A stretch of DNA of 64,000 nucleotides from Escherichia coli (GTDB lineage: Bacteria > Pseudomonadota > Gammaproteobacteria > Enterobacterales > Enterobacteriaceae). Location: NCBI RefSeq assembly GCF_044324785.1, contig NZ_CP172127.1; one strand, given 5' to 3'. The position numbers and the translations under genes are program-made. A model generated the notes under the pieces. It saw only the letters and a program-made list of their open reading frames with translations, ran no database searches and was not told the origin of the DNA. Positions within the stretch are counted from its first letter, which is position 1. Each line of letters begins with the position of its first letter. This document shows positions 40,232-42,789 of the stretch, in pieces.

Positions 40232-41533
40232 ATGGAACAATATGATCAAATTGGCGCAAGACTGGACCGCTTGCCTTTGGCCCGGTTTCATTATCGTATA
40301 TTTGGTATTATAAGCTTTAGTCTGTTATTAACGGGTTTTTTGAGTTATTCAGGCAATGTTGTTTTAGCAAAGCTGGTAAGCAATGGATGGTCAAATAATT
40401 TCCTCAATGCCGCCTTTACCTCGGCATTAATGTTTGGTTATTTCATCGGCTCTCTTACCGGTGGGTTCATCGGTGATTATTTTGGGCGGCGCAGGGCTTT
40501 TCGCATAAATCTTCTCATCGTCGGTATTGCGGCAACAGGGGCCGCTTTTGTCCCTGATATGTACTGGCTCATCTTCTTTCGCTTCCTGATGGGCACAGGA
40601 ATGGGGGCGCTGATTATGGTTGGCTATGCTTCGTTTACGGAGTTTATCCCCGCGACGGTGCGTGGAAAATGGTCCGCGCGGCTCTCATTTGTCGGTAACT
40701 GGTCGCCCATGTTGTCTGCGGCGATAGGCGTGGTGGTTATCGCTTTTTTTAGTTGGCGGATAATGTTTCTGCTGGGTGGTATTGGCATACTGTTAGCCTG
40801 GTTTCTCTCAGGTAAATACTTTATTGAGTCGCCTCGATGGTTGGCGGGGAAAGGACAAATCGCAGGTGCAGAAAGCCAACTTCGTGAAGTAGAGCAGCAA
40901 ATTGAAAGAGAGAAGAGTGTTCGTTTACCCCCGCTTACTTTGAATCAGAGCAACAGCAAGGCTAACATAATCAATGGTACTTTCTGGCTGCTGTTTAAAG
41001 GGAAAATGTTACGACGTACATTAGTCGCGATTACTGTTTTAATTGCAATGAACATTTCACTTTATACCATCACCGTATGGATACCGACCATATTTGTTAA
41101 CTCCGGCATTGATGTCGATAAATCAATATTAATGACTGCTGTTATTATGATTGGTGCTCCGGTAGGAATATTTATTGCGGCATTAATTATTGATCATTTT
41201 CCTCGTCGATTATTTGGCTCCGCCTTACTTATTATTATTGCCGTGTTAGGCTATATCTATTCAATTCAGACTACAGAGTGGGCGATTTTAATCTATGGCC
41301 TGGTGATGATCTTCTTTTTATACATGTATGTTTGCTTCGCGTCGGCGGTTTATATCCCGGAGCTTTGGCCAACGCATTTACGCCTGCGCGGTTCAGGTTT
41401 CGTTAATGCCGTCGGACGGATCGTCGCGGTCTTCACGCCTTATGGCGTTGCGGCACTATTAACGCATTATGGGTCAATCACGGTGTTTATAGTGCTTGGC
41501 GTGATGTTAGGGAAGGTGCGAACAAGTCCCTGA
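40232..41533 (+). pseudogene. ydjE: MFS transporter ydjE, 3'-truncated by IS5 insertion
   Basis: Reading frame enters IS5 at codon 427 and ends after 7 IS-encoded residues (GKVRTSP); the displaced final 26 codons continue in frame at 42706..42789. Confidence 0.75.
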
Positions 41534-42705
41534 TATGAGATCATGTTTGTCATCTGGAGCCATGGAACAGGGTTCATCATGAGTCATCAACTTACCTTCG
41601 CCGACAGTGAATTCAGCAGTAAGCGCCGTCAGACCAGAAAAGAGATTTTCTTGTCCCGCATGGAGCAGATTCTGCCATGGCAAAACATGGTGGAAGTCAT
41701 CGAGCCGTTTTACCCCAAGGCTGGTAATGGCCGGCGACCTTATCCGCTGGAAACCATGCTACGCATTCACTGCATGCAGCATTGGTACAACCTGAGCGAT
41801 GGCGCGATGGAAGATGCTCTGTACGAAATCGCCTCCATGCGTCTGTTTGCCCGGTTATCCCTGGATAGCGCCTTGCCTGACCGCACCACCATCATGAATT
41901 TCCGCCACCTGCTGGAGCAGCATCAACTGGCCCGCCAATTGTTCAAGACCATCAATCGCTGGCTGGCCGAAGCAGGCGTCATGATGACTCAAGGCACCTT
42001 GGTCGATGCCACCATCATTGAGGCACCCAGCTCGACCAAGAACAAAGAGCAGCAACGCGATCCGGAGATGCATCAGACCAAGAAAGGCAATCAATGGCAC
42101 TTTGGCATGAAGGCCCACATTGGTGTCGATGCCAAGAGTGGCCTGACCCACAGCCTAGTCACCACCGCGGCCAACGAGCATGACCTCAATCAGCTGGGTA
42201 ATCTGCTGCATGGAGAGGAGCAATTTGTCTCAGCCGATGCCGGCTACCAAGGGGCGCCACAGCGCGAGGAGCTGGCCGAGGTGGATGTGGACTGGCTGAT
42301 CGCCGAGCGCCCCGGCAAGGTAAGAACCTTGAAACAGCATCCACGCAAGAACAAAACGGCCATCAACATCGAATACATGAAAGCCAGCATCCGGGCCAAG
42401 GTGGAGCACCCATTTCGCATCATCAAGCGACAGTTCGGCTTCGTGAAAGCCAGATACAAGGGGTTGCTGAAAAACGATAACCAACTGGCGATGTTATTCA
42501 CGCTGGCCAACCTGTTTCGGGCGGACCAAATGATACGTCAGTGGGAGAGATCTCACTAAAAACTGGGGATAACGCCTTAAATGGCGAAGAAACGGTCTAA
42601 ATAGGCTGATTCAAGGCATTTACGGGAGAAAAAATCGGCTCAAACATGAAGAAATGAAATGACTGAGTCAGCCGAGAAGAATTTCCCCGCTTATTCGCAC
42701 CTTCC
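41511..42705 (+). mobile_element. IS5: insertion sequence IS5, complete
   Basis: 1195 bp; terminal inverted repeats GGAAGGTGCGAACAAG / CTTATTCGCACCTTCC; flanked by 4-bp TTAG direct repeats at 41507-41510 and 42706-42709. Confidence 0.95.
41579..42559 (+). CDS. insH: IS5 transposase InsH
   Basis: 326-aa DDE transposase [30 protein letters not shown]; track ORF starts 12 codons upstream. Confidence 0.9.
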
Positions 42706-42789
42706 TTAGTGCTCTGTGCGCTGGTTCTCTCCATTTTTGGCATCGAAACGCGGAAGGTGTCATTGGAAGAGATTTCTGAGGTGAATTAA
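42706..42789 (+). other. ydjE: displaced 3' remnant of ydjE (last 26 codons plus stop)
   Basis: Joining 41510 to 42710 restores an in-frame MFS C-terminus ...VMLVLCALVLSIFGIETRKVSLEEISEVN, total 452 aa. Confidence 0.7.

Follow-up and report, generated by a model that had tools for sequence, protein, structure and literature searches.

Our analysis of a 64,000-nucleotide stretch of Escherichia coli DNA (contig NZ_CP172127.1; hereafter, the window) reveals a complete IS5 element inserted in the 3′ end of ydjE. The explanation that best accounts for the observations, and in which we place high confidence, is a recent, clone-restricted IS5 transposition that likely causes loss of YdjE, is probably near-neutral, and probably leaves pncA-ansA unaffected. 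In the proposed course of events, a standard, coding-intact IS5 would have transposed into a TTAG inside ydjE codons 426-427, duplicating the 4-bp target; the insertion would thereby exchange the last 26 residues of YdjE, comprising the cytoplasmic tail and the C-terminal half of the final transmembrane helix, for 7 polar residues; and this exchange of the C terminus would most probably leave the transporter non-functional or unstable. As an inactivating insertion of an IS into an accessory gene, the event is ordinary and of a kind already known. This particular allele is rare and did not appear in the literature searched, although public protein databases already contain it. Overall, it is an ordinary strain polymorphism that matters little.

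Anatomy, identity and target site of the element

The element comprises 1195 bp (41511-42705, plus strand) and carries its transposase gene co-oriented with ydjE. Its ends are 16-bp terminal inverted repeats, IRL GGAAGGTGCGAACAAG (41511-41526, plus strand) and IRR GGAAGGTGCGAATAAG (42690-42705, read on the minus strand), which pair at 15 of 16 positions. The inverted-repeat pattern has two matches in the 64-kb window, both of them the ends of the element, with 0 matches expected from 100 shuffles. A copy of TTAG abuts each end: the left copy (41507-41510) is read directly from the sequence, and the right copy (42706-42709) is read from the sequence and from the overlap of the flanks on the genome of strain N3. 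The order across the two junctions is ...GGCGTGATG TTAG / GGAAGGTGCGAACAAG ... CTTATTCGCACCTTCC / TTAG TGCTCTG.... The initial annotation of this DNA had described a 1195-bp element with IS5 terminal inverted repeats and 4-bp TTAG direct repeats, and each of these features is recovered at the positions given here.

The open reading frame of ins5A, a DDE transposase, is uninterrupted, and encodes 338 amino acids if read from the ATG at 41543 (41543-42559, plus strand) or the 326-residue form, as annotated in K-12, if read from the ATG at 41579 (41579-42559, plus strand). The transposase matches the NCBIfam equivalog model NF033581 (transpos_IS5_4) with 365.5 bits, against a cutoff of 140 bits, over the whole profile (positions 1-285 of 285); in the 338-residue frame, 2 amino acids separate it from K-12 InsH1. 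At the nucleotide level, 1190 of the 1195 bases (99.6%) are identical to those of MG1655 IS5A, with the five substitutions relative to K-12 IS5A falling at element positions 54, 368, 584, 647, and 889.

IS5 is defined as an element of approximately 1195 bp with imperfect 16-bp terminal inverted repeats (PMC11677980), and its target motif, YTAR, comes from 220 reconstructed IS5 duplications (PMC5009759). The TTAG duplication in the window fits YTAR, and the length of the element, its terminal repeats, the duplicated target, the transposase, and a sequence nearly identical to that of the reference copy all agree with IS5, of the IS5 group in the IS5 family. Judged by its sequence, the element is IS5 itself and more than a mere relative. 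Copies that are 100% identical occur in strains W2-5 and EC4 at other, unrelated loci, indicating that this IS5 variant has been mobile in the past. A K-12 copy of IS5 that likewise has 5 mismatches is reportedly essentially immobile (PMC11677980), which counts against mobility of the window's variant, as the identical copies at other loci count in favour of it.

The direction of the event can be read from comparison with empty sites. On strain N3, the closest complete genome, the two flanks of the element map to stretches that share exactly 4 bp, as a target-site duplication requires, and IS5 is the sole large indel in 64 kb of sequence aligned at approximately 99.2% identity. Among 5,426 complete E. 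coli genomes, 5,419 match the reconstructed empty site: 4,317 of these cover 80% or more of it, and 1,102 cover only part. Neither the upstream portion of ydjE nor its orphaned 3′ fragment shows any further change, indicating that the insertion is recent. The insertion is the derived state.

The restored ydjE contains 19 YTAR sites, and the TTAG that was chosen is thus nothing special. In K-12, the homologous site is TTAT, and codon 427 is TTG (Leu) in place of the GTG (Val) found here, so that the K-12 allele offers no YTAR site at this position. The IS5 target motif at this site is confined to the TTAG/Val427 allele class.

Several observations concern the rest of the window. Identity to N3 is only 99.16% over 1-41510, and rises to 99.6% when 20000-41510 alone is compared; the first 20 kb has clearly diverged more from N3, consistent with a recombination mosaic. 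The gene yeaE is annotated as frameshifted in N3 (locus L005, 28749-29602). The small RNA sroD (Rfam RF00370, 115 bits; 5881-5966, plus strand) is the only Rfam match at the gathering threshold in the window, and a tRNA scan of the 64 kb returned no tRNA genes.

Disruption of ydjE

The insertion converts ydjE into a 433-codon open reading frame (40232-41533, plus strand) that ends at a TGA inside the IS (41531-41533). The product consists of 426 native residues followed by IS-encoded GKVRTSP, with the change beginning at codon 427; 26 residues are lost and 7 are gained, in agreement with the initial annotation. The remainder of the gene, codons 427-452 and the stop codon, persists as an orphaned 3′ fragment (42709-42789, plus strand) that is still in frame and unmutated. 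In silico removal of the IS and one TTAG yields a 452-codon open reading frame ending at 42789, as had been claimed, and the restored protein is identical to the allele present on 285 public contigs. The truncated product is itself deposited in public databases as WP_395765636.1 and XJR02362.1.

YdjE is a transporter of the major facilitator superfamily (MFS; TCDB 2.A.1.1.92), with profile matches across the whole protein. In particular, the product matches the Pfam families Sugar_tr and MFS_1, in keeping with the MFS assignment made at the outset, and among solved structures those of SLC22 transporters and of GlcP come closest, with E-values of 1e-14 to 1e-11. NCBIfam models of MFS subfamilies align to YdjE out to residues 447-450 with every score under the curated cutoff, and no specific subfamily is therefore assignable. 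In K-12, YdjE has been tentatively tied to export of acetophenone and 3-phenyllactate by untargeted metabolomics (PMC10971958).

The last hydrophobic run of the restored protein extends from I416 to I438 (ITVFIVLGVML / VLCALVLSIFGI) and is followed by a charged tail, ETRKVSLEEISEVN. The cut falls after L426, inside this run, and leaves 11 hydrophobic residues followed by the polar GKVRTSP, a hydrophobic stretch that, going by its length, is too short to span the bilayer. The 433-residue product accordingly lacks the full set of 12 transmembrane helices, of which the restored 452-residue form has the whole last segment. In lactose permease truncations from the Kaback laboratory in the early 1990s, loss of the final turn of helix XII reportedly abolished stable insertion. 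Hydropathy and profile coverage suggest that the 433-residue YdjE is likely null or unstable, since the last helix is interrupted halfway along, the remaining hydrophobic stretch is under a bilayer span, and lactose permease provides a precedent.

Separately from the lesion, the restored protein differs from K-12 YdjE at 12 amino acids, 9 of which lie within residues 215-258 (window 40874-41005). This segment is the central loop between the MFS halves, and the clustering suggests a hypervariable or recombined segment.

Distribution of the insertion and alternative readings

An IS5 insertion at the same site of ydjE is absent from all of the 5,426 complete E. coli genomes. This set includes MG1655, in which ydjE is intact and encodes 452 amino acids; the initial annotation had taken the MG1655 gene to be intact, had proposed comparison with K-12 reference genomes, and had called the insertion strain-specific, and the comparison shows no insertion in the K-12 reference and upholds all of this. 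The only full-coverage match to the junction, in strain A10 (Panama), was rejected as a carrier: its IS5 is a separate insertion that occupies the spacer between ydjF and ydjE. In a search of the literature for the gene combined with IS5, the one paper obtained was unrelated. The truncated protein is encoded on 3 public contigs, the longest of which is a 5.48-Mb chromosome. Another of the three comes from a short-read assembly of run ERR13187251, which contains the identical left junction on a contig that ends 29 bases into the IS and shows 1 mismatch to the window in 7,308 bp. The recovery of an identical junction in an independent assembly indicates a genuine insertion, restricted to a small clone. 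It can serve as a clonal marker for this small E. coli lineage.

ydjE is itself unevenly distributed. The gene is without a megablast match in 1,098 of the 5,426 complete genomes (approximately 20%), a figure that agrees with the 1,102 partial matches to the empty site, and the adjoining end of pncA is found in 5,419 of them; among the 4,328 genomes that bear ydjE, at most about 43 are without a near-full-length copy. A pan-genome study places ydjE among variable "extended-core" genes (PMC12595684). Independent lesions are present in other strains. Specifically, an IS3-family element splits ydjE near nucleotide 101 in O157:H7 strains F8492 (locus L007, 2231-3444) and PA8, and, in the Vietnamese isolate 2017.06.04CC, the first approximately 1,014 nt of ydjE are gone and ISKpn26, an IS5-like element, is present (locus L008, 2952-3932). 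Many E. coli naturally lack ydjE or carry a disrupted copy, and this patchy distribution suggests that the insertion, with its loss of YdjE, is most likely neutral or nearly so; the insertion provides one more example of IS-mediated decay in an accessory orphan transporter gene. As a further observation, about one fifth of E. coli lacks ydjE and may lack the entire ydj cluster as well.

The same observations bear on two other readings of the event. IS5 is multicopy in many E. coli (median 2 and maximum 43 places in a genome), and repeats often cause misassembly, so that a repeat copy of IS5 could have been misplaced into ydjE during assembly; the perfect 4-bp target duplication with exact continuity of the flanks, the same ydjE-IS5 left junction in a separately assembled, independent read set, and the annotation of the truncated product from a 5.48-Mb chromosome leave an assembly artefact with almost no chance of being the correct account. 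If the insertion is taken as real, loss of YdjE, for example of its proposed export of aromatic metabolites, could have been selected in the lineage, with IS5 merely the mutational route. The independent hits on ydjE by other IS elements in other lineages and the absence of the gene from approximately 20% of genomes are compatible with repeated selection, and the insertion is common to at least two non-identical isolates. However, a dispensable gene under relaxed selection predicts the same pattern; there is no sign of a sweep, with 3 contigs carrying the truncated allele against 285 carrying the intact one and few ydjE-bearing genomes (the approximately 43 noted above, at most) without a near-full-length gene; and selection for inactivation would not favour the extreme 3′ end, where this insertion sits. 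We consider adaptive inactivation improbable, and favour near-neutral loss of YdjE.

A further alternative is that the insertion is regulatory, changing expression of its neighbours through antisense or read-out transcription into pncA-ansA, through bent DNA or IHF, or through altered stability of the ydj transcript. IS5 does activate bglGFB, glpFK, flhDC, and fucAO when inserted upstream (PMC11677980, PMC11894529). In each documented activation, however, the insertion is upstream of a promoter or operon, whereas here both neighbours face the IS with their 3′ ends. Specifically, the gene order is ydjL-K-J-I-H-G-F-E followed by convergent pncA-ansA, as the initial annotation had it, and pncA is intact (42882-43541, minus strand), with 176 nt between its stop codon and the right-hand boundary of the IS; that boundary precedes the former ydjE stop codon by 84 nt. 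A scan with consensus promoter sequences gave 2 sites, with 4.2 expected by chance, and no promoter-like site reading out of IS5; no promoter is present downstream of either IS end. The internal promoters of IS5 are, moreover, reportedly nearly inactive (PMC11677980), and no polar effect is possible, as ydjE is the last gene in its direction. The hint in the initial annotation that expression of the neighbours might be changed thus finds no support in the anatomy of the locus, in which the 3′ ends of convergent units meet, and a regulatory role is highly improbable. Since the IS lies past the 3′ ends of both convergent units, pncA-ansA is probably unaffected, and, from the same anatomy, an effect on either pncA-ansA or ydjLKJIHGF appears unlikely.

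The ydjE-pncA intergenic region also contains a perfect 12-bp inverted repeat, CTGGCCTACAAT / ATTGTAGGCCAG, with an 11-nt loop (42840-42874), that is untouched by the insertion. This hairpin was considered as a bidirectional terminator and rejected, as it is without a T-tract on either strand and is not called terminator-like; it is possibly a REP-like remnant instead of an intrinsic terminator.

Comparison with known IS5 insertions

The position of the element invites comparison with the nmpC::IS5 insertion of K-12, another copy placed towards the 3′ end of a host gene. In both cases the IS is nested in a host gene with ins5A co-oriented, such that host transcription can enter the transposase gene. 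In ydjE::IS5, ins5A begins 10 nt (338-residue form) or 46 nt (326-residue form) past the new ydjE stop codon, and ansA-pncA, the convergent unit, is directed towards the strand that carries ins5CB. In K-12, the promoters of IS5 itself are nearly silent, and nmpC::IS5 is the only copy with detectable ins5A mRNA and is responsible for most IS5 transposition, which scales with how strong the nmpC promoter is (Onstead et al. 2024; PMC11677980). Forced expression of ins5CB also stimulates IS5 transposition (PMC11677980). By analogy with nmpC::IS5, transcripts started at the ydjE promoter could extend into the co-oriented ins5A. Going further, ydjE::IS5 might act as a context-activated donor, with transcription of ydjE entering ins5A, transcription of ansA-pncA entering ins5CB, and mobility tied to induction of ydj or ansA-pncA. 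We judge such a donor copy unlikely. Three other co-oriented K-12 copies, in lnt, wbbL, and yejO, have no detectable ins5A mRNA (PMC11677980), indicating that co-orientation alone is insufficient. The nmpC promoter is a typical sigma-70 promoter, and co-transcription was established there by 5′ RACE (PMC11677980); directly upstream of ydjE, by contrast, no convincing sigma-70 promoter was found, the sole plus-strand match (9 of 12) lying inside ydjF. In addition, a weak terminator-like hairpin on the minus strand inside the right end of the IS (42673-42661) could block read-through from pncA into ins5CB, making a donor copy less probable. If ydjE::IS5 were nevertheless such a donor, mobility of IS5 in the lineage would be coupled to conditions that induce the ydj locus or ansA-pncA, and the insertion would offer a wider relevance as a natural second test case for the recent finding that read-through from a host promoter into an IS5 of matching orientation decides which copy transposes.

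Compared with the K-12 reference element IS5A/insH1 (NC_000913 273955-275149), the copy in the window has the same 1195 bp, the same 16-bp inverted repeats, and a 4-bp duplication of YTAR type, and is distinguished by its five substitutions and by a location seen in 0 of 5,426 complete genomes. The IS5 insertions that activate bglGFB, glpFK, flhDC, and fucAO involve the same element with the same YTAR preference. Those insertions are upstream and act through loss of silencing, through IHF or bent DNA, or through a fusion promoter, whereas the insertion in the window is downstream of both transcription units and is inactivating. Within the ydj locus itself, the IS5 of strain A10 (NZ_CP195143.1; locus L001, 3005-4199) resembles the insertion in the window in having a TTAG duplication and the same orientation, but leaves the ydjE coding sequence intact: its target TTAG is 17 nt upstream of the ydjE start codon (homologous window site 40211-40214), between any ydjE promoter and the gene, and, unlike the insertion in the window, it could therefore alter ydjE expression. 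The IS3-family insertions of F8492 and PA8 and the ISKpn26 insertion of 2017.06.04CC are independent IS lesions by other elements, in which the 5′ part of ydjE is split or removed.
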